A DNA stretch of 64,000 nucleotides from Mytilus trossulus (Eukaryota), in NCBI RefSeq assembly GCF_036588685.1, contig NC_086382.1, positions 56,296,001-56,360,000 on the forward strand. Direction: 5' to 3'. Each line of letters begins with the position of its first letter. Positions within the stretch are counted from its first letter, which is position 1. The notes under the pieces were generated by a model. The model had not been told where the DNA came from and ran no database searches. It saw only the letters and a list, made by a program, of their open reading frames with translations. Shown piece after piece: positions 5,063-58,361 of this stretch. A program made the translations under genes and the position numbers.

Positions 5063-5432
5063 TAATGTTGTACTGTTATACTACTGTCCCAGGTTAGGGG
5101 AGGGTTGGGATCCCGCTAACATGTTTAACCCTGCCACATTTTTCATGTATGTGCCTGTCCCAAGTCAGGAGCCTGTAATTCAGTGGTTGTCGTTTGTTTA
5201 TGTGTTACATATTTGTTTTTTCGCTCATTTTTTTGCACAAATAAGGCTGTTAGTTTTCTCGTTTGAATTGTTTTACATTGTCTTATCGGGGCCTTTTATA
5301 GCTGACTATGCGGTATGGGCTTTGCTCATTGTTGAAGGCCGTACGGTGACCTATAGTTGTTAATGTTTGTGTCATTTTGGTCTTTTGTTGATAGTTGTCT
5401 CATTGGCAATCATACCACATCTTCTTTTTTAT
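5063..5432 (-). mobile_element. Copy of the abundant interspersed repeat beginning AAGAAGATGTGGTATGATTGCCAATGAGACAACT (Mytilus-type)
   Basis: Related copies in this window at ~13773-13970, 24300-24475 plus 26185-26270, 26697-26900, 35876-36400, 42430-42780, 46835-46990, 50050-50128 and 57860-58100. Confidence 0.75.
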
Positions 5433-7035
5433 ATATATACATGCTAACTATGTGCAGAAATTTCAAATCCAGCAAAATATGCAACTAAAAGTTTCTATAT
5501 ATTTCAAATAATACCACTATATGAAACTTTTAAAACTAAAATTAAGATGTTAAAGAAAGTTATTATTCTAAGTGACAAACCAAAACAAAATTGTTTAAGA
5601 TTAAATTGCTAGTTAACACCACAAGATAATATGAGGCTCAGCAAAATATTAAATTGTTAAATATTGATTTTACTGTATAAATTGTGCTGTGAACAATTAT
5701 TCATGGTCAAATTAGACTTCCCAAGTCAGGAACCACGTCAGTGGTATTCTTTGGAATTTTTCTTTTTAGATTTAAGTGCGAGTGGAAGTTCTATAGTTGC
5801 TTGTGTTTTTTATATTCTCATTGTGTAAAGACATGTGTTAAGTTATTGAGGTCTAGATGTATTTGGGTTACTATTATACATCTATTATGGGTTGCTGTCT
5901 CATTTTTGAATTTGAAACATCTTCTTTTATTCATTAGATAACTCATATTCATTTATTTGGGCTCTGGAATTCCATAAATTATGCAAAGGATCTGAAAAAA
6001 AAGCAATCATTTGTAACTTAACAAGTCAAGGTCAGAGAAAGGTTAAACATGAGGTGTACATAACTATACTAGTAGGTGAATTATCAACAGGTCAAATATC
6101 TTATGACAAATTGTGAAGAAATTCTTGCTTGGACAAAGTCAACCATGTACTGATTACTGTGGATTAATTTAATATTTACATTATTATCAATTTTCATGGA
6201 TTGCGGAAAACTAACATTTCAGTAATTTGTTACCTTCAACCATCATATCCACAAAAATAATAAATCCATAGCATCAGGTTTTTTGTATGCAAAATACATG
6301 TATTTATACTTTGATGGTTTTTTAAATGAGAGTGTGTTTTTAAGCTTCAATCACATCAAGGGCCGCCACCTCAGAGAGAGAAACATCCTGAAGCTTGAAA
6401 GACCATTGATAATCTGTTTACCTCTATTTTGCTCATTACAATGACAATGGTACATGAGTTTCTAGCAATAATCTTATCTCTCAAGCTACATTTGTAGTAG
6501 CATGATAAAAACTTATCACAAAAATACATCAAAGGAAAACTGCACAAAATAGGATCATATAAAATATCAGCTGGAGTCATACATTTTTAATATGGAGCTT
6601 TTCATCAAGTAAGCACAGTGAACTAATTAAAATTCTTCCTATTGGGTTGAGCAGCTGATATTTTTTTAAATTAAAATAATAAAAATATGATAACCAATTT
6701 ATCAGATTGTACTTGTAGGTTTATTTCTAATATAAACAGTTACAGTTTTTTCTGTCACTTAATTACCAGTAGTAACCATTTGAGGATACAATTAGTTTGG
6801 GTCAAAACTATCAACATCTGATGAAATGTTGCTGATAGGTCATGGTCAAAGTTATTATGGCAAGGTCAAGCATATCTGACATCACTATTTCTATTTCTAC
6901 GAAGAGTGAAGTGATAGGCACGGTGAATAGAACAATAAAGGTAAATACAAAGCCTAGCTAATAATTATAAGCATGATATGACTGCATACAGTGGTTAATA
7001 CAAATTTGAATAATTCTGTAATCAACAAAAAAATA

Positions 7036-12940: not shown

Positions 12941-13491
12941 AAATTTTGATATGAGGTCTGTCATGGTGTTATCTATACTTCCAAATAAGGGCTGAAGATT
13001 TTGATATAAGAATAGGTCTGTCATGGTGTTATTGATAATTACAAATAATGACTGAAGATTTTGATATGACGTCTGTCATGGTGTTATCTATAATTTTACA
13101 AAAGGGCTGAAGGTTTTGATATGAGGTCTGTCATATAGTGTTATCTATAATTACAAATAAGGGCTGAAGATTTTGATATGAGGTCTGTCATAGATGGTGT
13201 TATCTTTAATAACAAATAAGGGCTGAAGATTTTGATATTTGGTGTTATATATATACTCTTACAAATAAGAGCTGAAGATTTTGATACAAGTCTGTCATAC
13301 ATGTCGTATGGTGTTATCTATAATTACAAATAAGGGGTGAAGATCTTGATATGAGGTCTGTCATATGGTATTATCTATAATTACAAATAAGGGGTGAAGA
13401 TTTTGATACATGTATGTATGAGGTCTGTACATGAATCTTTGATTACAAATAAGGGCTGTAGATATTGATATTAGGTTTTATCTATACTTAC
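12941..13491. repeat. Tandem array (~55-bp unit, ~10 copies) derived from the PLD exon 2 / intron 2 junction
   Basis: On the - strand the unit reads ATAACACCATGACAGACCTCATATCAAAATCTTCAGCCCTTATTT|GTAATTATAG, matching the real exon end CTCATATCAAAATCTTCAGTCCTTATTT|GTAAGTATAG. Confidence 0.85.
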
Positions 13492-13642
13492 AAATAAGGA
13501 CTGAAGATTTTGATATGAGCTTGATGTCTTTCATATGATGTTATCTTTACTTGGATTGGTACGCCTTGAATCCAACAATTTCTTCTGATAGTTCCAAATG
13601 GCACAGATGGCGAATGAACATCTTTGAATGGTATTTCTTTTG
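13492..13642 (-). CDS. PLD1: PLD1/2-like coding exon 2 (AKEIPFKDVHSPSVPFGTIRRNCWIQGVPIQVKITSYERHQAHIKIFSPYL)
   Basis: AG/GT-bounded, phase 1 to 2; resembles the PLD1 pre-PX/PX start (IPF...GCPIKAQVLEVER...INL). Confidence 0.85.
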
Positions 13643-21615: not shown

Positions 21616-23082
21616 TAAAGTAAAGTAAAGTAAAGTAATCTTTATTTAAAGTCGGATTGCATATATATACATAATAACAATGAACATGAGCTCTTAAGAG
21701 CTCTTTAACCGACTGATATTAATAAAACAAAACATACATGTAATAACATCAGACACACATACAACACAAACATGCAAACAGACAGCACATATATATATAT
21801 TAATACATAGATAGCACATGCAGAATAAAAGCTAAGCAAGATAGATCAAAACAAATGTCTAATATCAGCACATATACAGTAGCACATAGTATTTATATAA
21901 CAGTAGCACATGCAAACTTAAACACTTTAAGCACAAACAAAAGACTGCATGCAGCTTATTATAGCAAAGGTAATGCATAAGCAAAAGAAATAAATGGCTA
22001 AATAAAAAATAACAATAACTGCAAAAAATAAAACATTAAAAAAAACCAAACAAACAGCAGGCTTCGAGATCAAGTTATGGGGCAGCAAGTAAGTACATTA
22101 TTTACAAGAACTGCATGTACATTTTTCTGAAAAACACATGCAGGTGGAGATAAAATTTTTGAACTGGCCAAAAGTTGATAAGCTCCTTGCCTCATTTGGC
22201 AAGGAGTTCCAGAGTTTTGCTGCCTCATAACTAAAGTTTTTCTTACCATACCTTGTTGTTTTTGGCCGTGGTATATCTGCTATGCCTTTGTACCTGAAGT
22301 TATATGAATTTTCTTTAATATTTACTAAATTATGTAGGAATTCTGGACTTGATTTATTTATTATTTTATATGTCTCTAATGCCATGGTTCTCAATCTTCT
22401 GATTTTTAGTGCTGTTAGCTTAGATTGTTCAAGAAGTGTATTGTAAGAATTTGTGTAGTCGTCATAAATAAATCTGAGTGCTCTTTCTTGTATTTTTTCT
22501 ATTTTCTTTGTGTTCTGTTCACTGCAGAAGTGCCATGTAAGGGGACAGTAGCTGAGGTTTGACATGATAAATGAGTGGTATATTGTAAGTTTTGAAAGTC
22601 TGGTGAGATGAGTGCCAATTCTTTTTAGAACGTTTAGTTGTCGTGCACCTTTTTTGCAAATATTTGAGATGTGAGTGTTAAAATCCAGTTTAAAGTCTAT
22701 TGTTACACCGAGAAGTTTCACTTCGTCGTCACATTTTATGTTGAATCCATTTAGGTTGAAAGTAATATTTTGAGTGTGTGTTTTTTTACCTATGGAAATT
22801 GCCTGGAATTTTTCTGGGTTTGCCTGCATTTTGTTGAAAGAGAACCATGAGATTAGGGAATTACTGTCTTCCTCTAAGGGTTTAATAACTGATTCCAAAG
22901 TAGTACCTGTTTTTGAGAGGGTGTTATCATCAGCATAGTTGTATAAATCACAGTGTTTGACAAAAAGAAAAATATCATTTATAAAAACATTAAATAATAC
23001 AGGGCCTAGTATAGATCCCTGAGGAACACCTTTATATATATCTTGCATTTGACTGATACTCTGGCCTATTTTTACACACTGT
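21616..23082 (-). mobile_element. 5'-truncated non-LTR retrotransposon (CR1/L2-group LINE)
   Basis: RT ORF plus ~480-bp 3' UTR ending in AATAAA and a (TTTAC)n microsatellite tail at 21616-21637. Confidence 0.85.
22098..23082 (-). CDS. LINE ORF2 reverse transcriptase, C-terminal part (uninterrupted, 5'-truncated)
   Basis: Motifs GVPQGSILGPVLF, YADD, N.EK, KLLGVTID..L.F..HI and WNSLP, typical of CR1/L2-group RT. Confidence 0.9.
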
Positions 23083-24475
23083 AAAATATCCGCTTTCATC
23101 TTAGAAACGCCGGGGTACATACCTGAATATATTGTATATTTTCCTGTCGATAGAAATTATTCTTGCTGTTTTATTTTTTTGTATCTCTATATAATATGTT
23201 GAATGTTTTACCTGTGGATAGATAGATGTTAATCTTGATAGCCTATCCGTTTTGTACACAGGCACTTGTCTCAGAAAAAAAAATACCTATATAACTTATA
23301 CCTTAGTGTTATACTAAGGTATAAGTTATATAGGTAATTGCCTGTGGTTTTGTATCTATGTTAACTAACTCCCCCTGATGCCATTCTTTCTAGCCAAATC
23401 GATATATTGTATTTCTTTATTCTTGATAAATAAACACGTAACATGATTTTAATTTTATAACATATTTAATGAATGAAGGAGATCCCGGTCTAAAAGACAT
23501 GAAACGTATATCACATTTGTTTTCATTGGTCCTTTCTTCAAGCATCATATGAATCAATACATGGTAAATATAACAGGTTTTTCTAAAAACACGTGTTGAT
23601 GTAAACAAACACACGTGTTTTACACCCCAAAATACATATGATTCCTTACAGGGGCGGATCCAGGATTTTGGAATGAGAGGGCGAATGTTTTAAATATCAC
23701 CTCGCTCCGCTAAAAAAATTTGGGACCTTTTTTGTGCCGTTTAACATAAAAATAAGTGTAACGGTTCCTGGCGTGGGCCATGTATATTTAATAGTTACTG
23801 TAAAGTGTAAGGGTTGGACATTTTTGTTGCTGTATTCTCCCTATCAATTGCCTATCATAAAATGATAGTATGGATCCAAAGCTATGTATGATGTGAGACT
23901 TGTCAGTAAAAAATAGACAGGTAAATTCTCGCCGGTTTGTTCTTGCTGTAAACAAGATATATACAACGGGCTATCCGATGAAATTTACAATACGACCGAC
24001 TCGAGTTAAAAAAGAGAAACAAGCATTTTTTATCCAAATGTTGGTTGATATGTATCACCCAACAAAACTAAGGGAAGTGGAGTTTCCAAATCAACCAAAG
24101 GCTACGAAAGCCTGAGTCTAAATGAACACGAATTTACGAATGACGGTCGACAAATGGAGACACCCAGCAGACAGGTTACAGGTTACAGTCTGGTCTTGAA
24201 AAAAAATATTCAATACTTAAGTCCGGCGAAACAGACATTCCGGTCAGACATGCACACCTTAGCCACAAAAAAAATCCCCCCTTTTTTATTCATCATAGAT
24301 ATAGGAAGATGTGGTGTGAGTGCCAATGAGACAACTCTCCATCCAAATAACAATTTAAAAATTAAACCATTATAGGTTAAAGTACGGCCTTCAACAAGGA
24401 GCCTTGGCTCACACCGAACAACAAGCTATAAAGGGCCCCAAAATTACTAGTGTAAATCCATTCAAACGGGAAAAC

Positions 24476-24824
24476 TATAACCAGGAAGATTTGGGCTATT
24501 TGCGATTACAAATAAATTAGGATCAGACAATATATTTTAAGTGCTATAGTGACAATTTATTAATCCGTTTATCAAACCTTTTACATTTCTTTGTGTCTAA
24601 TTAATTCTATTGTTAATTATATGTTTGTCGTGATGGAAATCACTCTGACCATGACAAGTTAACTAATCCTTTGATATAGAAACTGTTTTCTATATATGCT
24701 TTTGTGTGTTATGTTGTAGGGAGTTTAGGTCTTAGGTCTGGTACTGTCCGGACCTTGCTAATAAAGTTTAAAGTATTGGTATTCCGTCTTTGAATCACTA
24801 TAACACGGAAAACGCCCGGTTATA
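24476..24824 (+). repeat. 5' LTR (TATAACC...GGTTATA)
   Basis: About 3 nt differ from the 3' LTR by eye; contains TATATAT and AATAAA. Confidence 0.9.
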
Positions 24825-24878
24825 TATTGGTTGAGGTACCCGCGGCACGATTCTGAGCTAGTCCCCCCAAACTAGTAA

Positions 24879-25744
24879 ATGGATACCTTCAGAAACAACA
24901 ATATGGAAGGAACCTGGAATTACCAGCCTTGCAGAAATGGTCATCCGTTTCCGATAAGAAAAGAAGATACCTGTTTGGACTTTATGTGTAAATATTGCGG
25001 TAAGGCATTGAACGTTTTCACCTACCATCGGTGTTATGCAGTTAACGCTCATTGTTACAAGTGCAGACATCATGGACATTTTGCCCGTATGTGTAGTTTT
25101 CACGCTAAGTCATGTGAAAACCCAAAACAAAAGAAGAAGTCAAAATCTAAAATGCAAAGAGACAGCGACCGCATGAGAACGTTTATCGAGAAGAAGCAAA
25201 TGTCTCAATTTCCGTTTCAAGGACTTGAGGACAAGGAAATATCTTCATTTACGTGCACCATACAGGACGAATCCACGAAACAGCACATAAACAAGTTAAA
25301 AGTGTCTAACCGAAACTTCATCAAAGAAATCGCTGAGCTTAAGGCTGAAATTCTAAATTGGATACTGTAGTGAAAGATAACGTGATATTAAGGAACAATT
25401 TGGACAAAGTATATTTGGAACGTTCAGAACATGGCCGAATAATTCAAAAGATCGAACATGAATTAGCCGAACATACAAGTAGAACTGAAAATTTTGAAAA
25501 GGAAATAATGCGATTGAAAGAGGAAAATCGAAGTTTAACGAACACCCGATACCGTTTAACTATGGATTTAAAAAGTAAAGACATGCAAGACTGCCATGTA
25601 ATTAAAAATCTTAAGGACGAAATTCAAAAACTGAAAAAACAGAAAAATGACGATCTACGTGAAAATCAAGATTTACTTTCTGAACTTTCAATCGCCGAGT
25701 CTCAACTTGAAAAATGGCGTGCAAATTATCCGAACAACAACTGA
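24879..25744 (+). CDS. Gag-derived Zn-knuckle plus coiled-coil protein, split by one frameshift near 25355
   Basis: CKYCG...HRCYA....CYKCRHHGHFARMC (CX2CX4HX4C) in ORF 24879-25370; heptad-rich ORF 25358-25744 continues in the -1 frame. Confidence 0.7.
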
Positions 25745-25835
25745 CATCAACACCCACGACGAGGAGGATACCCAAGACGATAACAAAATTTATTCGGCAA
25801 ACTCGGAGACCGAGTTTAGGTGGAGTAGTGGCGAA

Positions 25836-26184
25836 TATAACCAGGAAGATTTGGGCTATTTGCGATTACAAATAAATTAGGATCAGACAATATATTTTAA
25901 GTGCTATAGTGACAATTTATTAATCCGTTTATCAAACCTTTTACATTTCTTTGTGTCTAATTAATTCTATTGTTAATTATATGTTTGTCGTGATGGAAAT
26001 CACTCTGACCGTGACAAGTTAACTAATCCTTTGATATAGAAACTGTTTTCTATATATGCTTTTGTGTGTTATGTTGTAGGGAGTTTAGGTCTTAGGTCTG
26101 GTACTGTCCGGACCTTGCTAATAAAGTTTAAAGTATTGGTATTCCGTCTTTGAAATACTATAACACGGAAAACGCCCGGTTATA
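25836..26184 (+). repeat. 3' LTR (TATAACC...GGTTATA)
   Basis: Direct repeat of 24476-24824 at an offset of 1,360 bp. Confidence 0.9.
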
Positions 26185-27339
26185 AAACCAACGGTCTAAT
26201 CTATATAAACAAAACGAGAAACGAGAAACACGTATATATTACATAAACAAACGACAACTACTGTACATCATGTTCATTTAATGCTAAATAATTTTGTTGG
26301 AAATTTTTGTTTCTAAATGCCAAAAAAATGGACAAGACTCTTGTTTTCCATTTAGATACTGCCAGAAATTTTGTTTAAGGCAAGAATCAAAGTCAAATTT
26401 GTTTTCTCTCAACTTATCTCAGACTGCCTCCTCGAATCAAATGGTTCGTACCTGAGACTTTTAAAAATCTTTCTAGAGGATCTACTGACTGTGCATCATT
26501 ATTCAACTTTGTTATTTATAAAATAGGCTGGGACATTTGGGGTTAAACATGTTTTCGTAGGTAAATAGTATTGTGGAACATTTTTTTCATGAGAGTGTAA
26601 TAGTCTAGAGTATTTACTTTTACATAGAAAATCACGTGACTTTGACAATCAGTAAATACCAGCGAAAAATATCTTAAATTAATAAGTAAATATAAAAAAG
26701 AAGATGTGGTATGATTGCCAATGAGACAACTATCCACAAAAGACCAAAATGACACAAACATTAACAATTATAGGTCACCGTACGGCCTTCAACAATGAGC
26801 AAAGCCCATACCGCATATAGTCAGCTATAAAAGGCCCCGATAAGACAATGTAAAACAATTCAAACGAGAAAACTAACGGCCTTAATTATGTAAAAAAAAA
26901 ATGAAAGAATTGTTGCCACGGTATAAAAATTTACGGGAAATGGCAAAGTTCACGAAGTCTAGTCTGAAAAATCATTAAATTATTTTTACAAACAAACAAA
27001 AAAGTCCGAGCAAAGGGGTACGCCCTCTACACCCCCTCTGAATCCGCCACTGCCTTACTATTATTAAATACATATATATATAAACGGATCCAGCCACATT
27101 AAAAAATGGGGGGTCTAACCCAGGACAAAGGGGGGTTCCAACTATATGTCCCCATTCAAATGCCTTGATCGGCCAAAAAAAAAACAACAACCCCCGGACC
27201 CTACTGGATCCGCCAATGTATTCATACACATCCTTGTTCGTCCCAACATAACAATGTTTGTCTCAGTTTGAATGTATTTACGCTAGTTTCTTTCCCCTAT
27301 TTATTAGTCAGTTACACGCAGGGAAATAACCCATCCAGC

Positions 27340-28329
27340 ATGGGTTTAGTCTTTGACCAAGCAGAGTGTTTACTCTTACCAAGTGTAGCGGCAACATTAA
27401 CATTGGGCAAGTTTCTTGATAAAAACTCCGAACTTTTTACTAAATTAGAAAATGAAACTAATGTAAGCATTTTAAAAAGAAATACGGAAAGCGGAGTGAA
27501 CTATGTTTTTTCCGGAAGGTTTGCCGATTTGACTGTTGCTAATACAATAATCGTCAATTTCATTGAGGACTTAAGGACAAAAATAAACGAAGTACACACC
27601 GCTTTGCTCTCTGATGGTAGGAATGGATCTGCTAGAAATAGTCTATGCGGTACACATACACAGTTATTAAAAGAGGAACCAGGAACAGAAAATATGACCA
27701 GAGCTAACATCCAGACTTTAACAGAAGAGAACGTCCATACAGAGAGCACAGAAAATGTCCAAATAGAAAATAACGAGCACACAGAAAACGTTCAGATTGA
27801 GAACACAGAGAACGTTCAGATTGAGAACACTGAAAACGTTCAGATTGAGAACACAGAAAACGTTCAATTTGAGAACACAGACAACGTTCAGATTGAGAAG
27901 ACAGAGAACGTTCATATTGAGAACACAGAAAACGTTCAGATTGAGAACACAGACAACGTTCAGATTGAGAACACAGAGAACGTTCATATTAAGAACACAG
28001 AAAACGTTCAGATTGAGAACACCGAAAACGTGCAGATTGAGAACACAGAGAACTTTCAAATTGAGAACAATTGTTACCACCAAGGTAAAAAGAAAAATAT
28101 AGAAATGGAGAAAATCTGCAGAAAAAAAAGAAAAATGTCAGAAGACATCATTGTAGAAGATAAGGAATGTACAGAGACATTTAAGTGCAGTCTGTGTCAG
28201 GATCAATGTTTTAAGGATAAGTTAAATCTTCGTTATCATATGTATTGGAGACACAACATTCCACGAAAAGAAAGTTTTTTTGATTTAATATATATAGAGC
28301 ATGTAGAGTATAAACATGAACTAATTTAG
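27340..28329 (+). CDS. Uncharacterised protein with ENTENVQI octapeptide repeats, a basic NLS-like patch and one C2H2 zinc finger
   Basis: Open frame of ~330 codons from ATG 27340; 24-bp repeats at ~27725-28070; CSLCQDQCFKDKLNLRYHMYWRH; RKKRK. Confidence 0.55.
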   Translation: MGLVFDQAECLLLPSVAATLTLGKFLDKNSELFTKLENETNVSILKRNTESGVNYVFSGRFADLTVANTIIVNFIEDLRTKINEVHTALLSDGRNGSARNSLCGTHTQLLKEEPGTENMTRANIQTLTEENVHTESTENVQIENNEHTENVQIENTENVQIENTENVQIENTENVQFENTDNVQIEKTENVHIENTENVQIENTDNVQIENTENVHIKNTENVQIENTENVQIENTENFQIENNCYHQGKKKNIEMEKICRKKRKMSEDIIVEDKECTETFKCSLCQDQCFKDKLNLRYHMYWRHNIPRKESFFDLIYIEHVEYKHELI

Positions 28330-28519
28330 TGAGTCCAACTGGCCAGTATCCTAAAATTGACATGCTTAAGTTTAAAAGATTGAATTACCTAACAGGCAGG
28401 TTGAACTTGGGTTGAGCTTGTCCTCTATCATGTCTATGAAAAAAAATCCATCTTGCCCTACTGAGTTGTGATATTTCAATTTGTGTTACATGTAATTTGT
28501 CATCAATGACTGGCCCTTA

Positions 28520-29100
28520 ATGAGATAATCTCGTTAAGGGCAATTTAATCTTATTAAGGGCAATTCAATATAATTAAGGGCAAGTTTATCTCATTGAAGG
28601 CAATTCATTCTGATTGAGGGTAAGTTATCACATTTAGGGCAAGTTACTTTGATTGAGGGAAAGTTATCTCATTCAGGGCAAGTTAATCTGATTGATAGTT
28701 ACAGTATATAATTAATCTAAATATTAATCGATTGTTATATGCATGTTTTGCCAAAATCCTGGGCTTAAGTGGGCGTAAACAACTGACCAAGATATTTACT
28801 TGTCCTCAATGAGATGACTTGCCTTCAATTCTATTAACTTGCCCTCAATGAGATGACTTGCCTTCAATACTATTAACTTACCCTCAATGAGATGACTTGC
28901 CTTCAATACTATTAACTTACTCTCAATGAGATGACTTGCCTCCAATACTATTAACTTACCCTCAATGAGATGACTTGCCTTCAATACTATTAACTTACCC
29001 TCAATGAGATAAATTTGCCTCTCCAAATGCTTTTAAAAATAGCAAAAGTTAGTCAGATTACTATTAAGTGGGCAAGTCCATGTCAAGTTCAACTTGCCCT
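28520..29100. repeat. Inverted arrangement of ~20-bp GAGGGCAAGTT repeats and a 39-bp tandem array (28797-29020)
   Basis: agggcaagtt units at 28520-28690; cctcaatgagatgacttgccttcaatactattaacttac about 5.5 times in the opposite orientation. Confidence 0.75.
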
Positions 29101-29359: not shown

Positions 29360-32300
29360 TAGCAATCCAATGACACACCGCAATTCAAGTAGTGTTAACA
29401 TGGTTAATGATACTGCTACCCAACTACCTACAACAACATCATATAAAGGATTCACTGTGATAGCTACCCAATGACACATAAAGTAGTATGTCGTTAATGA
29501 GATAACTATCCAATGACAAATAGTATTGTTGTTAAAGAGATATAACTACCCAATGACAAATAAAGTGTTATGTTGTTCATGAGATAACTACCCATTAACA
29601 CAAAGTGTTATCTTGTTCATGAGCTCAAAAAGTGTTATGTAGATTAATGAGATAACTACCCAATGACACATAAAGTATTATGTTGTTAATGAGATAACTA
29701 CCCTATGACAATGATACATATAGTATTTTGGTGTTAATAAGATAACTACACAATGACAAATGGTATTGTTGTTAAAGAGATATAACTACCCAATGACAAA
29801 TAAAGTGTTATGTTGTTCATGAGATAACTACCCATTAACACAAAGTGTTATCTTGTTCATGAGATAACTACCCAATGACACATACAGTGTTATGTAGATT
29901 AATGAGATAACTACCCAATGACACATAAAGTATTATGTTGTTAATGAGATAACTACCCTATGACAATGATACATATAGTATTGTGGTGTTAATGAGATAA
30001 GTACCCAATGACACATAAAGTGTTATGTTGTTAATGAGATAACTACCCAATGACACATACAGTGTTATGTTGTTAATGAAATAACTACCCAATGACACAT
30101 AGTATTGTGTTGTTAATGAGATAACTACCCAATGAAAATCAAAATTTTATGTTGTTAATAAGATAACTACACAATGACACATAAAGTGTTATGTTGTTAA
30201 TGAGATAACTACCCAATGACACATAGTAGTGTGTTGTTAATGAGATAACTACCCAATGACAAATACCGTGTTATGTTGTTAATGAGATAACTACCCAATG
30301 ACACATACAGTGTTATGTTGTTAATAAGATAACTACCAAATGACTCCTAGTATAATGTTGATAATGAGATAACTACCCAATGACACAAAGTGTTTTGTTG
30401 GTAATGAGATAATTATCCAATGACACATAAAGTATTATGTTGTTAATAAGATAACTACCCAATGACAAATACAGTGTCATGTTGTTAATGAGATAACTAC
30501 CCAATGACACATACAGTGGTATGTTGTTAATAAGATAACTACCCAATGACTCGATAGTATGCTGATAATGAGATAACTACCCAATGACACATGTGTTATG
30601 TTGTAAATGAGATAACTACCCAATAACACATAAAGTGTTATGTAGTTAATGAGATAACTACCCAATGACAAATACAGTGTTATGTTGTTAATGAAATAAC
30701 AACACAATGACACATAGTATTATGTTGATAATGAGATAACTACCCAATGACACAAAGTGTTTTGTTGTTAATGAGATAACTATCCAATGACACATAAAGT
30801 GTTATGTTGTTAATGAGATAACTACCCAATGACTCATAGTATTATGTTGTTAATGAGATAACTATCCAATGACACATAGTATTATGTTGTTAATGAGATA
30901 ACTACTCATTGACACATAGAGTATTTTTCATTAATGAGATTACTACCAAAGACAAATAAAGTATTATGTTGTTTATGCGAACTATCCAATGACACATAAA
31001 GTAGTATGTTGTTAATGTGAAAACTACCCAATGACAAAAAGTGTTATGTTGTTAATGAGATAACTACCCAATGACACACAAATTGTTATGTTCTTAATGA
31101 GATAACTAACCAATGACAAAAAGTATGTTGGTGTTAATGAGATAACTACCCAATGACACATATTATTGTTGTTAATAAGATATAACTACCCAATGACAAA
31201 TAAAGTGTTATGTTGTTCATGAGATAACTACCCGTTAACACAAAGTGTTATCTTGTTCATGAGATAACTACCCAATGACACAAAAAGTGTTATGTTTATT
31301 AATGAGATAACTACCCAATGACACATAAAGTATTATGTTGTTAATGAGATAACTACCCAATGACACATACTATTATGTTGTTAATAAGATAACTACCCAA
31401 TGCCACATAATATTATGTTGTTAATAAGATAAGTACCCAATGATCAAAGTGGCATGTTATTAATTAGATAAGCACCCAATGACAAATTTGATTATGTTGT
31501 TAATTAGAACACAGAACTATGTAGAGTGGTTAATGAAACATCCACCCAATGACACACAGACAACTTCAGATGTGTCAATTATACAGCTACCCAATGACAC
31601 ACAGACAACTCTAGAGTCGTTTATGATATAGCCACCCAATGACAAACCGAAAAACTAGAGGAGATAATGACACAGCTACCAAATAATAAAGTGAAAACTC
31701 TAGAGGGGATAATGACACAGCTACCCAACAACACATATAAAACTGTAGAGGTGACAGTGAAACCGCTTCCCAATGACGCACAGAAAACTAGAGGTAAAAA
31801 TGACACAGCTACCCAATAACACGTAGAACACTCTTAGAGGTGAAAATGGCGTAGCAAATTAAACCAATGGCACACAGACCAAAAAAAGGTGTAAATGACA
31901 CAGCTATCCAATGACCGACATAAAACTGTAGAGAGGTTAATGAAACCGCCACCCAATGACACACAGACACCTCCAGATGTGTTAATTATACAGCTACCCA
32001 AAGACACAAAGAAAACTGTAGAGGTGACAATGACACCGCTTCCCAATTAGAAAACTCTTAGAGGTGAAAATGACGTAGAAAACCAATGACACACATACCA
32101 ATCTAAAGGTGTAAATGACACAGCTACCCAACGACACACAGAAAACTCTAAATGTGATAATGACACACCTACCCAATGACACACATACAAATGTAAAGTG
32201 GTTAATGAAACAGGCATCCAATGACACACAGACAGCTCCAGATGTGTTAATTATACAGCTAACCAAAAACACACTGAAAACTCTAGAGGTGTTAATGATA

Positions 32301-33100
32301 TAGCCACCTAATAACAAACAGAAACACTAGAAGTGATAATGACGCAGCTACCAAGTGACACATAGAAAACTCTAGAGGTGAATTAACACAGCTACTCAAT
32401 GACATACAGACAAATCTAGAGGTGTTAATGACACAGGCACACAACGACACACAAAACACTCTGGAGTTGATAATGACGCGCCTGCCCAAGACACACACAG
32501 ACAACTTCAGATGTGTTAATTCTACAGCTACCTAATGCCACACAGAAAACTCCAGAGGTGTTAGTGATATAGCCACCCAATGACACAGAGAAAACTTTAG
32601 AGTTTTTAATGAAACAGCTATCCACTGACCTAGAGAAAAGTCTATAGAGGTTTTAATATATGATATAGCTACCCAATGACACATAGAAAATTCTAGAGGT
32701 TTTAATTAGGCAGCTTCCAAACGACCCATAGAGCTACCCAACGAAACACAGAAAACTCTAGAGGTGATAATGACACAACTACCCAATGACACACAGAAAA
32801 CTGTAGAGTGGTTAATGAAACAGCTACCCAATGACACAGGCAACTTCAGATGGGATAATTATAAAGCTACCCAATGACACATTAAAAACTCTAGAGGTGT
32901 TAATGATATAGCCACCTAACGAGTAACGACACACAGAAAACTTTAGTGTCAACGAAACAGCTACCCACTGACACACAGAAAACTTTACAGTTGTTAACTT
33001 ATGATATAGCTACCCAATCACACAGAGAAAGCTCTGGATGTGTTACTGATATAGTACCCAATGACACAGAGAAAACTCTAGAGGTGACAATAAAACAGCC
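29360..33100. repeat. Satellite array, ~40-44-bp monomer with core CTACCCAATGACAC, in two sub-domains
   Basis: Type A GAGATAACTACCCAATGACACATAAAGTGTTATGTTGTTAAT (~29460-31500); type B GACACAGCTACCCAATGACACACAGAAAACTCTAGAGGTGTTAAT (~31510-33100). Confidence 0.95.
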
Positions 33101-33670
33101 ACCTGAATAAATGGAGTGCTATTTATGATCATAAAACTGTAAAGAAGAGAATAATGTGCAAAGTGTATAAAAATTGGCTTAAAATAGGAGACAACTGCTT
33201 AAGCATCTACATACTAGTAATGTACGACCCTGGGAAGCAGGTAAGGCAATGAATCTCACCCCAATATACATGCATTTCCGGCTTAATTCGAAGTCACACC
33301 GTTGATATATATATACATGTATAGCTTCATATAAATGCATGAGTGGGGAACAGAGACATTAAATATTTTGAAGATGTAAAAGACCAAGAATGACTAGTTC
33401 TAGTAAATACTGATAAGACTAATGTAGAATAACTTTCATCCTGTTGTTGAAGGCCACACAGTGGCATATATTGCTTACATCGACGGTATTTGGTCTCTTG
33501 AGATCTCGGGTGAATACTTCTTATTTTTATGATTATAAAGGGAGTCTTGAGACCTAAGCAACTATAATCATGTGAAATAAAAATTATTAGATTAAATTGC
33601 AACATCTATGCTTTTCCAATGATAATAATAAAATACAGGAGATCGATATTTTTAAAGTCGACTCGTATAA

Positions 33671-33898: not shown

Positions 33899-36419
33899 TA
33901 AATTATATATGAATGATGTTAATGGGAAAAGGGAGATAACCACATTATTTTTTTTTTACTGTTGTCATGATATCTTTTTAAAACAATAATTTAACCCTTA
34001 GTAAACTTCAATATATATTTTAGAATAATACAAGCTTCAAATCGTAAATATAAACAGAATGAATGGTTTTCAAGATACACAGCTTTTGCCCAAGAAGACA
34101 GTGTTCAAATCTGAGACTTTAAGTTAGATTGATTTCTACATAAATAAGTGACTTAAATGCCGAGCTGTGTAATCATAAGAAAGAAGTTTGTGTCAAAATC
34201 CTGATTAACTATATAATATATTACAATTTACATGCACATGCACATACACACAACAAACGTATATAAGTAAATTTTATATGATGCAATAATTTTGAATGGT
34301 AGTGTTATTTCTTATTATCCCACTCTATTTAACACGATCGTTAATTTTCTTGATTAAACACAATTTCGATCTTGATCGATTCTATAATTATAATATGTGG
34401 CAACTGAGGAAAAAAATGTTTAAAATTATATGACATATGTGTGGGGATGAACTGACGGGACTGGTTCCAAAAAGAATACCATGTATTCCTTACAAAACAA
34501 CTTGTTTATTTTCACGCTTTGATTACAATTCAACAAAGGACATCATCACCCGTGTCCGTCATGTAATTTACCTAATTGATAGGTGATGGTCAAACCTCTT
34601 ATAGTCACTCAAAATGACCAGATAACTGTCATTGTAATCATGGACATGTTTTCACACCCAATCGTTCTGTCCTGCTTTAGGGAAAATAGACCGCAAGAGT
34701 CATGTATCTGAAGTAATTAAAATAAATAATTATTTAAGATGAAATCTATGATAGAAATCTACACTTTGTAATAGTCGTTCCTTGGAGACAAACAGTTTCC
34801 TGTCGAGGAACAAAAGGATCAACACTTTAGATCAGATTGTCCGCCACGATAATGTAAGGATTTGTTTTGAGAAAAAAGAACGGAAATATTATTGCCAATA
34901 TTTAATTCTATATTTTTAAATTAAAATGTCAGCGTATGTTATGATTCTTGCAAGATGTTTCTGTTCTGATGTGGTTTACCAACCTACTCCGTCGCCAGAT
35001 TTGATATAGGTTTACAATAATAAAAGGTGTGAAATTAGACTCAACAGATATTTATAAATCGTTTTTAAATTAAAGAAGAAAAATAAATGTTTTTGTATAT
35101 GAAATTTGAAATTTTGTGATCTCGCACACATGTTTTTTGTAAATATTTCTTTTACTCCTAATATTGCATAAACCTTCCACATAATAAATTAGTTTTACAA
35201 TATTAATTTTTGGGGCCCTTTATAACCTGCTTTTTGATGTTAGGTAAGGCTCCGTATTGAAGGACGTATGAATTTACCTATAATGGTTTACTTTAATTGT
35301 TTTTACAAATAGTGACCTGGATCGAGACAATGGTAATTATTTATCAAATTTTTCTCAGCAAAAACGTATCAAATTTGTTTGATCGGTTCTGAAAACTACT
35401 TTGCTGTAAATAATATCAAGGGATGTATTTGCAGAATTGTTTGAAAAATTATAAAAACTGCAAAAATATGACAAAAGATAACAAAATTTTTATCTATAAC
35501 GGGAAAGGGGGGCCGGGGTATATATTATACACTGCTTGCAGCATTAGTTCTGTCATATTATATTTTAGTTTAAAACACTGAAACAATCACAAGTTCCAAA
35601 AAATATTGATTTCAGACAGTATCATTTTGATAGAGACTGGTTTTATATCTACACTTTTTCCAAAACGAAAAAAAACAATCCAATTTGATATAATGGTGCT
35701 CGTCCGATCGGTGGAGATATAATTTTTATTTTCATACCCAAAACGATTTTATTAAAAATAACAAAAAAGGAAAAAATAAAATATATCATTAATAATCTTA
35801 AATGATGAAGATAATGATAACACAACTTATAAAAAATGAATTTGATAAATCGTTGTGTTGCAGTATGTAGATATAAGAAGATGTCGGGTATGAGTGCCAA
35901 TGAGACAACTCTCTCATATTAGTCACAATTCGTAAACGTAAACCATTACAGGTCAAGGTACGGCCTTCAACACGGAGCCTTGGCTCACACCGAACAGCAA
36001 GCTATAAAGGGCCCTAAAATTATTAAAGTAAAACCATTAAGTAGATTCTTTTTTTTTTCACTTAAAAAATACATTAGGAACATATAGGGCGAAATTTCCA
36101 TTAGGAAAACAGTCCTTAAAAACCCTACAGAAGAAGAAGAATGTAAAACCATTCAAACGGGAAAACAACGGTCTTATCTATATAAAAACGAGAAACGAGA
36201 ACACGTATGAACTACATAAACAAACGACAACTACTGTACATCAGATTCCTGACTTAGGACAGGTGCACACATTTGCATCGGGATTAAACGTTTTAATGAC
36301 ACCAAACCTTCTCCCTTTTCTGAAACAATACTATAACATCACAACATAGAAAAAACCACTATAAAATATCAATTGGAAGGCTTAACTCAATAAACAAAAC
36401 GCAAAATAACATATTAGGA

Positions 36420-37560
36420 CCAAATAAAATTGAGAAAGGAAATGGTGAATATGTCAAAGCGACAACCACCCGATCATAGAGCAAATAACAGCCGAAGGCA
36501 ACCAATGGGTCTTCAATGTAGCGAGAATTCCCGCACCCGTAGGTGTCCTTCAGCTGGCCCCTAAAATATGCATAATAGTACAGTGATAATGGACGTCATA
36601 CTAAACTCCGAATTATACACAAGAAACTAAAATTTAAAATCATACAAGACTAACAAAGGCCAGAGGCTCCTGACTTGGGACAGGCGCAAAATTGCGGCGG
36701 GGTTAAACATGTTTATGAGATCTCAACCCTCCCCCTATACCTCTAGCCAATGTAGAAAAGTAAAAGAATAACAATACGCACATTAAAATTCAGTTCAAGA
36801 GAAGTCTGAGTCCGATGTCAAAAGATGTAACAAAAGAAAATAAATAAAATGACAATAATACATAAATAACAACAGACTACTAGCAGTTAACTGACATGCC
36901 AGCTCCAGACCTCAATTAAACTGATTGAAAGATTATGTCTTCATCATATGAATATCAGGTACAATCCCTCCCGTTAGGGGTTTAGTATCATACTATCATA
37001 AAATATATGAGAAGAACATAACCCGTGTCATGCCAACAACTGTTTTTTTTAGAAATAAATGTGTTTAGTTCCGATGCAAAGACCCTATCAGTGAATCAAT
37101 GTTAAAGCCAAAATATGCAATCTTTAATGACCTGACAACAGTATCGTAACTATATCCCCTTTTAATAAGTCTATTTAAAGGTTTTGTCAGTTTCTGAGGA
37201 GAATACTTACATTTTTGTGCTTTATAAAGAATATTTCCATAAAATTTTGGATGTGAAATACCTGAACGTATAAGATGTCTGCATGTTGAGTAATATTTAC
37301 GAATTATTTCCTTATACCGGTGATAAAATTTAGTAAATGTTTTGACCAGTTTGTGATATCGAAAACCCTGGTGTAATAATTTTTCAGTCATACATAAATT
37401 TCTCTCGCTAAAATCTAATACGTTGTTACATACACGAGCGAATCGTACAAGTTGAGATATATAAACACCATAAGATGGTGACAAGGGAACGTCACCATCT
37501 AAAAATGGATAATTAACAATAGGAAATGAAAAATCATCTCTTTTATCATAAATTTTTGTG
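36420..37560 (-). mobile_element. 5'-truncated Penelope-like element (Naiad/Chlamys-type; no C-terminal GIY-YIG) with 3' UTR
   Basis: TKIYDKRDDFSFPIVNYPFLDGDVPLSPSYGVYISQLVRFARVC is a PLE RT/thumb motif; the ORF stops at 37065 with no endonuclease domain. Confidence 0.75.
36939..37014 (-). promoter_or_regulatory. SECIS-like (form 2) stem-loop in the PLE 3' UTR
   Basis: CTTCTCATAT-atttt-ATGAT-AGTATGATACT-AAA-CCC-ctaac-GGG-a-GGGATTGTACC-TGAT-attc-ATATGAtGAAG: helix I, UGA/GA core, 11-bp helix II, AAA bulge and apical ministem. Confidence 0.7.
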
Positions 37561-38389
37561 TATGTAATCTGATGAAATAAAGAATTATTATTATTTTTCT
37601 GTTTTACACAAATCATAATTAGAAAAAAGTACATGACTTTGTATACAGTGTAAAAAGTGTAAAACGACAAGTATCTGAACCATCCATACCCAAAGAACGA
37701 TCGAACATGTGTTTATTTCTATCTAATTAATGATCTGCAGAAAAACAAGCAAATATCTTCCAAACAATCTCTGTTTTCTCGGAGTTCAGTATTTTTGTGA
37801 TTTTACCTTTTTTTTACACTTTTTTTCCTGTTATTTTGTCCTTTATAAATTGCGAATTTTGAACACGGTCATTTCTCCGGAATACGGGTCTTACTGTTTT
37901 AGAAATATAACCATAAGACGATAATCCATATCTAGTATATTATAAAACTGACCGTTGGTTTTAAAATAAAGCTTAAGCAGCTTTCACTGCATATCTTATA
38001 AAAATATACAAAATATAACTGGATAGAAATTGTTTTAAAACAAAATGAATTAAATCTGGAAAATTACTTTTTCAGAGGGAATTTAAAGATACAAATATTT
38101 TTTTCTCTTATCAATAAATTAGAGAAGAAATGTGTAGTGGGTAACTTTTCCCCTGGTTGACCAGGGTTTCTTTTCTGCTTAATTTCGTCTGTAGTAATTA
38201 TGTATTTGTTTATTGAGGAAACTGTCCTTTTACACAAGAGTTCGACATAACAATGATATATCTCTGCACTTAAATTTATAAAAGTATAATGAAGGAATTT
38301 AAATGTCCATGTTCGATATACAAAGAAATATAAAAAGTTAGAAAAATTGGAAATAGTTATCATTTAGGTACCAGAATTATAATTTAGTA

Positions 38390-40226: not shown

Positions 40227-40305
40227 GATTGATGAAATTTTATTAATATTATAAAATAATTAGATCTCAAGAAACTTACTTGAAAGTTAAGCAATCATTT
40301 CAAAA

Positions 40306-41103
40306 ATGGAAAAGGAAATATACGTCGACATAGAAGCCATTGAAGATGATGTTAGTGATGTTCATGACAATGTAGACTCATTTGAAAGCAGTAGTAGTTC
40401 CAGCAATCAGTCCTACAACTCCGAATCTTCATTGTCGAAATCTCGTGTACCTGAAGACATTCGCCTGAAAGTTAATAGCAGAGAACGACAAAGGATGCAT
40501 GATTTAAATTCGGCGCTAGATGGACTCAGGCAAGTGATGCCGTATTCTAATGCACCCACTGTAAAGAAACTGTCTAAAATGTCTACCTTATTACTGGCAA
40601 GAAATTATATTGTAATGCTAACACAGTCTATTGAAGAAATGAAGAAAATTGTGCAGGACCTTTCTCTGAAGAATAGTCATCGTGCCTCTATGTACAGTAA
40701 TGTTGGAAATAGTCGGTACTCGCCGTACAAATCTCCGTTCGTACCGCCTTACAGAGATGTTACAAACACTAATCATGGACTTAGCGCTGACAGCTTCGTG
40801 AATTCTGACAAAAATATATTGTTTCCAAGGCTACAGACATCAACACCGCTAGCAGATAAAACAAACACTAGAACACCAGCAAGTGTTCCACACAAATTTT
40901 CTGTTTCATCGTTACTGGATCATTCTTCAGACTCAAAATCGGAGTCACCATCTATCTGCTCGTCATCAACAACATTTTCACCGAAGATTTCCTCAAGTTT
41001 AAGTCGAAGTCACATTGAACATTCACTTTCAACCCCATGCTCTTGTGAAGCTTGTGTGTTACCACAAATATATTCCAAGCGTGAATGGAAGGCATTATTC
41101 TGA
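40306..41103 (+). CDS. Olig: Olig-family (Olig/bHLHe22-23) bHLH transcription factor, intronless
   Basis: [53 protein letters not shown] closely resembles the Olig2 bHLH; C-terminal PCSCEAC matches the Olig PC.C..C motif. Confidence 0.92.
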
Positions 41104-56724: not shown

Positions 56725-58361
56725 TGAAGGAACAGTATTAAGTCACTAACAAGGGCATGTGCAATATATTTCATCCTCATCATTTATGTGTATTGTCTTT
56801 AATGTTTATGTCTACTTACAAACAACAACAATAATATTGAATAAAAAATAGATTTAAAATTTGTACTTCTATTATTGGTTATAAATAACAACGACTAGGT
56901 AATTAGTGTTCTGTAGATTTTTTTTATTGTATGTTTCTAAAATGTGGTCGGTATTTCCTAACATTTACCAATGCAACATGAGTAGCAGGATCTGCCAACG
57001 TTTCTGTAACACCGGAAACCACCTCCGGTTTTTTGTTGGTTTCTTGATGTTCAGTTTATCTATATATTTTCTATGTTGTACTTTGCGTATGATGGTTGTG
57101 TTTCGTCGTGTTCTATTTCATGAAATGGCATAGACAATTTGACAATCATTTCGACTTGTGATATAAGGATAAAAAGATGTAGTATGATTGACAATGAGAT
57201 CAAAATGATATAGAAGTTTACAACTATAGGTCACAGTACGAACTTAAACAACAAATATAATATACAGCAACAAACTAAAACCACTGAATTACAGTCTTAT
57301 GATTTGAGATATAAAAATGAGGGGTTATACGTGTTTACGGGCACCCAACCCTCCCCTACCCTGAAACAGTGTGAAACAACACAATGTATGAGCGATATAC
57401 TATAAAAACTAGTTGAAAATGGCTACAAAGAAAAAGAATACGATACAGGATATTTCTAAATCCCCACAGTAAAAAAGACGCGATGTAAATGAACTAGTGT
57501 GGATTATTTTAGTCACTGAAACATTGATAACGTGTTGTTAAATACTTGATAAGAACAACATGTAATATACTAGGTAACTGTGATCGAAAGAATAGTAACA
57601 TAACTAATCAATCAAATGTATAAAGAAAAAGATAAAATACAAGTAAATGTACTTCTGTCAATTTGTTTTGAATACTGTTTGCATTGTAAATACACCAACA
57701 CATGGAAGTTTCTAACGACCTTGACTGGCTATACTGAGCCCTCAAACGGTTGGAAAATACATTTAAAACATCTTACAGTAACATTTAGAAGTGGCTTTTA
57801 TGTACATCGGTTATTTGACAAATAGGTGGATTTTTATTAACTTATCTAGACTAAGGTTGCCCTTTGTTTATGTGTTGCATATCTGTTTTTTGTTCATTTT
57901 TTTACCTAAATAAGGCCGTTAGTTTTCTCGTTTGAATTGATTTACATTGTCTTATCGGGGCCTTTTATAGCTGACTATGCGGTATGGGCTTTGCTCATTG
58001 TTGATACCGTACGGTGACCTATAGTTGTTAATGTTTGTGTCATTTTGGTCTTTTGTGGATAGTTGTCTCATTGGCAATCATACCACATCTTCTTTTTTAT
58101 AAGTATATATCACGAGTCTGTCGATTAAATACAACTTATCAGACGCTAGTATATAAAATGAGTATACTACAACATGAGACTAAAACAAGAATTTGTTCGA
58201 TTTGACTCAATATAGGATTACGTGCATCGGTTATACGTTAAACGTAATTTTTACGCAAGTAGAAAAATAAGGTTTTACACATGAATTGCTTACAAATCGT
58301 GTGTTCCTTTCTTTCACAATCGCATTTAATGGGTTCGTGTTGTTTAATATTGAGTGATCTA

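Follow-up and report, generated by a model that had tools for sequence, protein, structure and literature searches.

A probable multi-copy, pol-less LTR retroelement family of Mytilus with TA...TA termini and a gene for nucleocapsid-type fingers and a predicted coiled coil

The window analysed here is a stretch of 64,000 nucleotides of Mytilus trossulus DNA (contig NC_086382.1, positions 56,296,001 to 56,360,000 of the forward strand). At 24476..26184 it contains an LTR element of 1.7 kb with an interior of 1011 bp. The element and its immediate surroundings have the following features:

24295..24475, no strand assigned: left part of an interrupted high-copy host repeat, identified by sequence comparison
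24472..24475, plus strand: left target-site duplication, AAAC (alternative boundary: AAAAC)
24476..24824, plus strand: 5′ LTR of 349 bp, TATAACC...GGTTATA, with TATATA (TATA-like) at LTR position 216 and AATAAA at 285
24825..24845, plus strand: sequence at the primer-binding site (PBS) position, a spacer of 3 bases followed by TGG; the same in a related contig
24879..25370, plus strand: ORF piece 1, 163 aa, with a double zinc finger (residues 37-72), a lysine-rich linker, an RD..RM..F...K..PF motif and the start of a coiled coil
25349..25744, plus strand: ORF piece 2, 131 aa, in a second frame, with coiled coil and a premature stop at 25742-25744
25745..25783, plus strand: RG-rich tail, in frame past the premature stop and matching the C-terminus of intact copies
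25818..25835, plus strand: purine-rich tract at the polypurine tract (PPT) position, adjoining the 3′ LTR and read through by gene models P0008, P0039 and P0014
25836..26184, plus strand: 3′ LTR of 349 bp, with 3 differences from the 5′ LTR
26185..26188, plus strand: right target-site duplication, AAAC
26189..26270, no strand assigned: right part of the interrupted host repeat, identified by sequence comparison

The original prediction had described two 349-bp LTRs with about three differences and TATAACC...GGTTATA at all four ends. Both points held, as those ends are read in both LTRs and the differences number exactly three, at LTR positions 176, 320 and 321, the last two being adjacent, so that possibly only two events are involved. 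The terminal inverted repeat of the LTR is perfect over 7 bp, for which the chance is approximately 1.4e-4, and extends to 9 of 10 bases. The last 26 bases of the LTR (24799-24824, 26159-26184) can also form a hairpin by way of an internal TATAAC, which equals the first six bases of the LTR. The claim of a clean insertion splitting an interspersed repeat was borne out, with uninterrupted copies of the host repeat matching the empty site both in the window and among contigs of four sequencing runs (each run consists of contigs, and the one labelled 'RNA?' is no evidence of expression). The insertion is young, in agreement with the proposed recent mobility. The predicted 4-bp duplication AAAC is present on both flanks, while a 5-bp duplication AAAAC combined with an element one base shorter would give an identical empty site and is formally equivalent. 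Because of the symmetry of the perfect 7-bp terminal inverted repeat, the 4-bp reading with TA...TA ends is in our own judgement clearly to be preferred.

The interrupted host repeat is AT-rich, interspersed and of very high copy number, with approximately ten (partial) copies in the window, including those at 24295-24475, 26685-26900, 35862-36243, 5181-5439 and 57855-58109, and extreme depth in all four runs. No second copy of the element and no solo LTR were found within the 64-kb window. Other features of the window include a 386-aa ORF at 27169-28329 (plus strand) with 24-bp tandem repeats (ENTENVQI units), the end of which we take to be C2H2-like, and tandem arrays at 28508-29020, 29451-33110 and 12943-13552, the first of these being composed of 20-bp and 39-bp arrays that are mutually inverted. 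A 270-aa ORF at 40291-41103 (plus strand) has a bHLH-like stretch presumably resembling Olig/BHLHE22 factors, and the fragments at 22098-23156 and 37065-37712 (both minus strand) presumably resemble a non-LTR reverse transcriptase and a Penelope-like ORF, respectively.

No tRNA was identified in the LTR by ARAGORN or Rfam. In the Rfam search for ribozymes and small RNAs the sole match was a sub-threshold SNORD79 (E-value 0.2), occurring in both LTRs (24605-24681, 25965-26041) with 26 bits against a gathering threshold of 47, and it is likely due to chance. Self-priming was considered and rejected, as comparison of the PBS region with the element gave no complement longer than 6 bases. None of the tRNA ends viewed in Fig. 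S2 of PMC10886601 matches the sequence at the PBS position.

A search of both ORF pieces against Pfam returned no protease, reverse transcriptase, integrase or capsid, as the original prediction had stated for the interior. The prediction of a zinc-knuckle and coiled-coil ORF was correct as to the domains. In the window copy, however, these are spread over three pieces and are not open: the gene is broken twice, by a frame break near 25347-25349 and by the premature stop at 25742-25744, and the suggestion that this copy keeps its own RNA-binding protein is not supported as worded, intact frames being found only at other loci. At the position of the premature stop the covering contigs differ from the window in all four sequencing runs. 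At the frame break, contigs of other length are present in two of the four runs, the remaining two being uninformative. A programmed frameshift was rejected, as relatives are open in one frame. By eye, we take the 22-base overlap of the two ORF pieces to hold no canonical slippery heptamer. An unrelated copy that is 74% identical (P0042) ends in the same frameshifted tail as the window copy, which suggests that a copy may already have the frame break before it inserts and that mobilisation of broken templates is possible; the same pattern would arise from a mutation hotspot. The window gene (24879-25744) may be a mosaic formed by recombination between subfamilies, as suggested by the nearest copies, which are of the M. 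edulis type for piece 1 (89%) and of the M. coruscus type for piece 2 (72%). Contigs with 0-3 differences from piece 2 over 243-365 bases are present in all four runs.

Open versions of the gene, coding for 292-302 aa in a single frame, are present at many loci in M. coruscus, M. edulis and M. galloprovincialis, and are 83-89% identical to piece 1 and 55-72% identical to piece 2. The close family consists of 45 sequences in 7 clusters. Most of the 37 members listed are individual gene models located on contigs that differ in length; one cluster contains 8 M. coruscus loci, and another contains 11 from M. edulis and 4 from M. galloprovincialis. Distant subfamilies are also multi-copy, occurring as near-identical sets of 11 and 12 members on separate contigs; in the set of 11, nine are M. 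edulis models and six of these are of 275 aa. These clustered loci bear out the predicted multi-copy, pol-less family, and the window element very probably represents a young copy of such a Mytilus LTR family with TA...TA ends.

The only insertion seen with both flanks is the window copy itself (24476..26184), and the ends of other copies were read from gene models and contigs. Three gene models cross the PPT into the 3′ LTR, namely P0014 of M. coruscus and P0008 and P0039 of M. galloprovincialis. The residues at their PPT-LTR junctions are GEYNQ in P0014 and ANITR in P0008 and P0039. With a TG start these would instead read ECN or NVT, so the LTR begins with TA in both species and TG is excluded. 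At the other end, a contig (X8 record 20) spanning 24798-25104 has 10 differences. By our own matching of depths these correspond to 10 listed rows, none of which lies before 24852, so that GGTTATA and the PBS are unchanged in it. Record 3, a contig that has diverged by 30 differences in approximately 183 bases, begins to match exactly at 24476. The translation of the more distant P0043 (59% identical) continues across U5 and the PBS and conserves RKTPGYILVE, in a frame that cannot separate TA from CA. Judged from these sequences, the TA...TA ends are a family trait and not decay, as had been claimed. The N-terminal extensions of P0112 and P0128 share WLENPK...Y.IY.V.VRS, resembling an LTR-end and PBS read-through as in P0043, and hint that distant members may also lie in LTR elements.

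From the first 39 proteins of the set, 14 full-length Mytilus copies were selected for their length and motifs. Their fingers have an identity of 0.94 and their motif one of 0.95, compared with values of 0.78 and 0.60 for the coil. Across 41 sequences, most of them only 20-38% identical to P0010, the residues C59, C62, H67, C72 and R98 are invariant, and a long-term conservation of the protein appears supported. The 17 listed coding sites that differ comprise 5 synonymous and 12 non-synonymous changes (18% synonymous being expected by chance). This sample is small and biased and gives no evidence of constraint. The probability of finding no stop is 0.002 for the whole protein and 0.05 for the first 230 residues, an argument that is biased in that gene callers report open frames.

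The structural model of an intact natural copy, P0010 (mean pLDDT 80), is composed of the fingers (37-72), a helix (89-108), a short helix and a single long helix (130-280), and contains no capsid. Prediction with two chains gave an in-register parallel coiled coil over residues 137-284, with a score of 0.40 against 0.00 for the best control, a contact agreement of at least 53% and a pLDDT of at least 64. In the test sets, 21 of 30 microbial and 17 of 29 eukaryotic homodimers attain the dimer mark, while none of the single-chain proteins does so in either (eukaryotic: 0 of 30). This supports, without showing, a dimeric coiled-coil rod of approximately 150 residues, since long coils may pass by likeness. 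No match at an E-value of 0.001 or below was obtained with Foldseek, and VIA-align returned generic coiled coils only (best Z 8.2). Neither fold search listed a capsid, a type of result that cannot exclude one. The ESM Atlas held nothing above 0.82 by features and nothing above a TM of 0.30 by structure.

The finger region matches the EIAV nucleocapsid 2bl6 (E-value 5e-7). A profile match was also obtained to an autonomous gag-pol, L002 (probability 95.5, E-value 1.6e-8), which is limited to the fingers and leaves the rest of gag unaligned. The available part of the report on the Steamer-like element MchSLE1 describes a comparable two-finger nucleocapsid (PMC11046912). These matches agree with the Gypsy-type knuckle of the original prediction, and by sequence likeness the double finger is a Gypsy nucleocapsid of the Mag/Steamer type. 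As modelled, the protein is not a normal Gag, being Gag-like in the fingers only and having no predicted capsid.

A search of 1.84 billion representative proteins gave 73 matches. The double finger is present in 53 of these and the RD..RM..F...K motif in 56, and 46 contain the two in that order. Members with a named host belong to Mytilus, Tegillarca granosa and Pinctada imbricata, and annotated relatives include CAC5366160.1, CAG2193894.1, CAC5392467.1, KAJ8313351.1 and the Pinctada model FSP39_007307. Pfam assigns no specific family, giving only weak zf-CCHC and generic coil matches. No fusion to pol was found among the 73 representative matches, 70 of which are of 376 aa or less while the three long ones are unrelated proteins, and neither fingers nor motif occur in any of 19 long matches (659-2000 aa), a weak test, being limited to 7999 scored candidates. 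When viral, metagenome and prokaryote contigs were scanned for the DNA context of relatives, the only matches were L002, an unrelated gag-pol, and L001 and L003, both short and weak. At 186-4490 of L002, a metagenome contig, there is a complete Gypsy-type gag-pol of 1434 aa that shares the double finger. L002, the sole autonomous element examined, lacks the helix-PF motif. In P0063, P0066, P0072, P0076, P0090 and P0108 a second, C-terminal double finger replaces the RG tail, and these six proteins would form a rod whose two ends are both of the RNA-binding type. No description of the element or its protein family was found in the full text of open-access papers, and Repbase, Dfam, subscription journals or supplements may already contain it as an unnamed LTR family. 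Term searches of PMC6238403, PMC8556966 and PMC10294476 gave nothing on it.

As far as the available parts of the cited papers describe them, a number of known systems share individual features with the mussel element. The TR-GAGs of plants are short non-autonomous LTR elements that have a PBS and a PPT and whose one ORF contains a CCHC finger (PMC4350172), and the window element is similarly short (<4 kb), with a PBS position, a PPT and, in intact relatives, a single ORF with fingers. The TR-GAG ORF, however, has a recognised GAG domain (UBN2) followed by the finger (PMC4350172), whereas the mussel protein has N-terminal fingers followed by a long coil, gives no GAG-domain match and belongs to an animal host. 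The TR-GAG comparison of the original prediction is not supported in the strict sense, as only the fingers are Gag-like here. One-gene non-autonomous LTR elements are also known in plants from PMC13570524, their proteins too being Gags with a GAG or capsid domain. Among animals, Bhikhari/Crestin of zebrafish and ENS-1/ERNI of chicken are likewise young non-autonomous LTR elements having one ORF with a coiled coil and many broken copies. Their proteins have a predicted capsid domain, retroviral ancestry and an N-terminal coil (PMC12067270), while the mussel protein has no predicted capsid and has fingers of the Mag/Steamer type. Mag-clade and Steamer-like Gypsy elements share the double-finger nucleocapsid but are autonomous gag-pol polyproteins (PMC2577118, PMC11046912).

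The host is shared with the Helenus TRIMs of Mytilus, which have 4-bp duplications and the LTR end CCGGTTACA and are attributed to Gypsy helpers (PMC10886601). These too are non-autonomous, and their LTR 3′ end is one base apart from that of the window element (CCGGTTACA vs CCGGTTATA). Helenus elements are non-coding, their LTR includes a tRNA-like stretch, and the Mytilus entries viewed have TG...CA ends (PMC10886601). The window element, with no tRNA in its LTR and a coding interior of 1 kb, lies outside their definition. Termini of the TA...TA type are known from AtRE1 of Arabidopsis, which differs in being from a plant, and the plant LTR elements with non-canonical ends are mostly Copia (10.1101/137141). 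The molluscan LTR lineage Troyka is a precedent for fixed ends other than TG...CA. It differs in its CG...CG ends, 3-bp duplications and finger spacing (PMC12440569), and the window element does not belong to it. With TA...TA ends and one-gene LTR elements each having precedents, what is new is the conserved protein with no predicted capsid.

Considering the evidence as a whole, we moderately favour, as the best explanation, a non-autonomous family that uses the enzymes of a Gypsy helper and codes for its own RNA-handling protein with no predicted capsid. From the LTR signals, transcription from the 5′ LTR would be expected to give an RNA of approximately 1.4 kb. The protein is predicted to form a parallel dimer, with two heads of the nucleocapsid type on a rod of approximately 150 residues, a basic linker, the conserved helix-PF motif and the RG tail, and its fingers and basic parts would bind the element RNA. 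The helix-PF motif or the rod may then touch either the Gag particle of the helper or a host transport factor. Since the element has no pol, reverse transcriptase and integrase would have to come from elsewhere, the former using the PBS and PPT of the element and the latter accepting ends one base off the usual ...GGTTACA and making the 4-bp duplication. In view of the single-base difference between CCGGTTACA of Helenus and CCGGTTATA here, this helper may be like that of Helenus, with an integrase that tolerates or shares TA. No autonomous element with TATAACC...GGTTATA ends or the same PBS was found among the contigs and proteins searched, so that the particle hijacking and the TA-accepting integrase of the original prediction stay suppositions. 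The young window copy is broken twice, and P0042 shares its frameshifted tail, so the protein appears not to be strictly needed in cis, and a purely cis-acting adaptor is weakened as an idea. Broken copies such as that of the window would have moved with the protein of intact sisters, indicating partial action in trans. The specific role of the protein as a dimeric RNA adaptor or chaperone favouring the element RNA in the cycle of the helper is proposed tentatively, with a probability that we place just below even.

The same element class could also be served by a protein acting before packaging, in trans for all copies, as a Rev/CERV-like nuclear export factor or as an RNA-stabilising or anti-silencing factor, and here the lysine-rich linker could be a nuclear signal. 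The spread of broken copies would fit, and there is a precedent in CERV of the Gypsy-type element Cer1, which is needed for RNA export (PMC10309623). This is nevertheless unlikely in our estimation, as the fingers are of the nucleocapsid type, the H, M and G domains of CERV as described are unlike a single long helix, and selection on a trans-only factor would be harder to maintain in a selfish element. Quite improbable is an origin of the element by internal deletion from a larger autonomous Gypsy element in which the protein was an accessory second ORF beside gag-pol. Extra ORFs are known in some LTR elements, and a separate ORF next to pol would be invisible to protein searches. However, 54 bases separate the 5′ LTR from the start of the ORF and 34 bases lie between the end of its tail and the PPT, and both junctions are common to relatives (the PPT side in P0008, P0039 and P0014, the U5/PBS side in P0043 and X8 record 20), so the short form is itself old and shared.

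The remaining explanation is that of a mainly host gene family, or one captured from such a family, in which some members ride in LTR elements and conservation reflects host function. It gains from the DNA context being known for the close Mytilus family only, and from the zebrafish Bhikhari Gag, for which host roles are described in the part of PMC12067270 available. The multi-copy, near-identical sets (11 and 12 members) of the distant subfamilies on separate contigs, the truncation of several members and the coexistence of very different subfamilies in one species favour the pattern of a mobile element instead, and we regard the host-gene explanation as highly improbable. Returning to the Gypsy-helper explanation, its widest form would be an old and diverse class of bivalve satellite LTR elements without pol and capsid, in which a nucleocapsid-coiled-coil adaptor loads the RNA onto a helper and at least one lineage has TA...TA ends and a matching integrase. 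This wider form is possible, and we hold it to be somewhat less than an even proposition.

By what route non-autonomous LTR elements bring their RNA to a helper is still an open question, as stated for TRIMs in PMC10886601, and a small element with one conserved protein that has no predicted capsid is a concrete candidate for addressing it. Dozens of mussel gene models labelled 'hypothetical' or mislabelled ('PPL') are explained as likely transposon cargo. As TA...TA ends escape LTR finders restricted to TG...CA, such elements may be undercounted in mollusc genomes.
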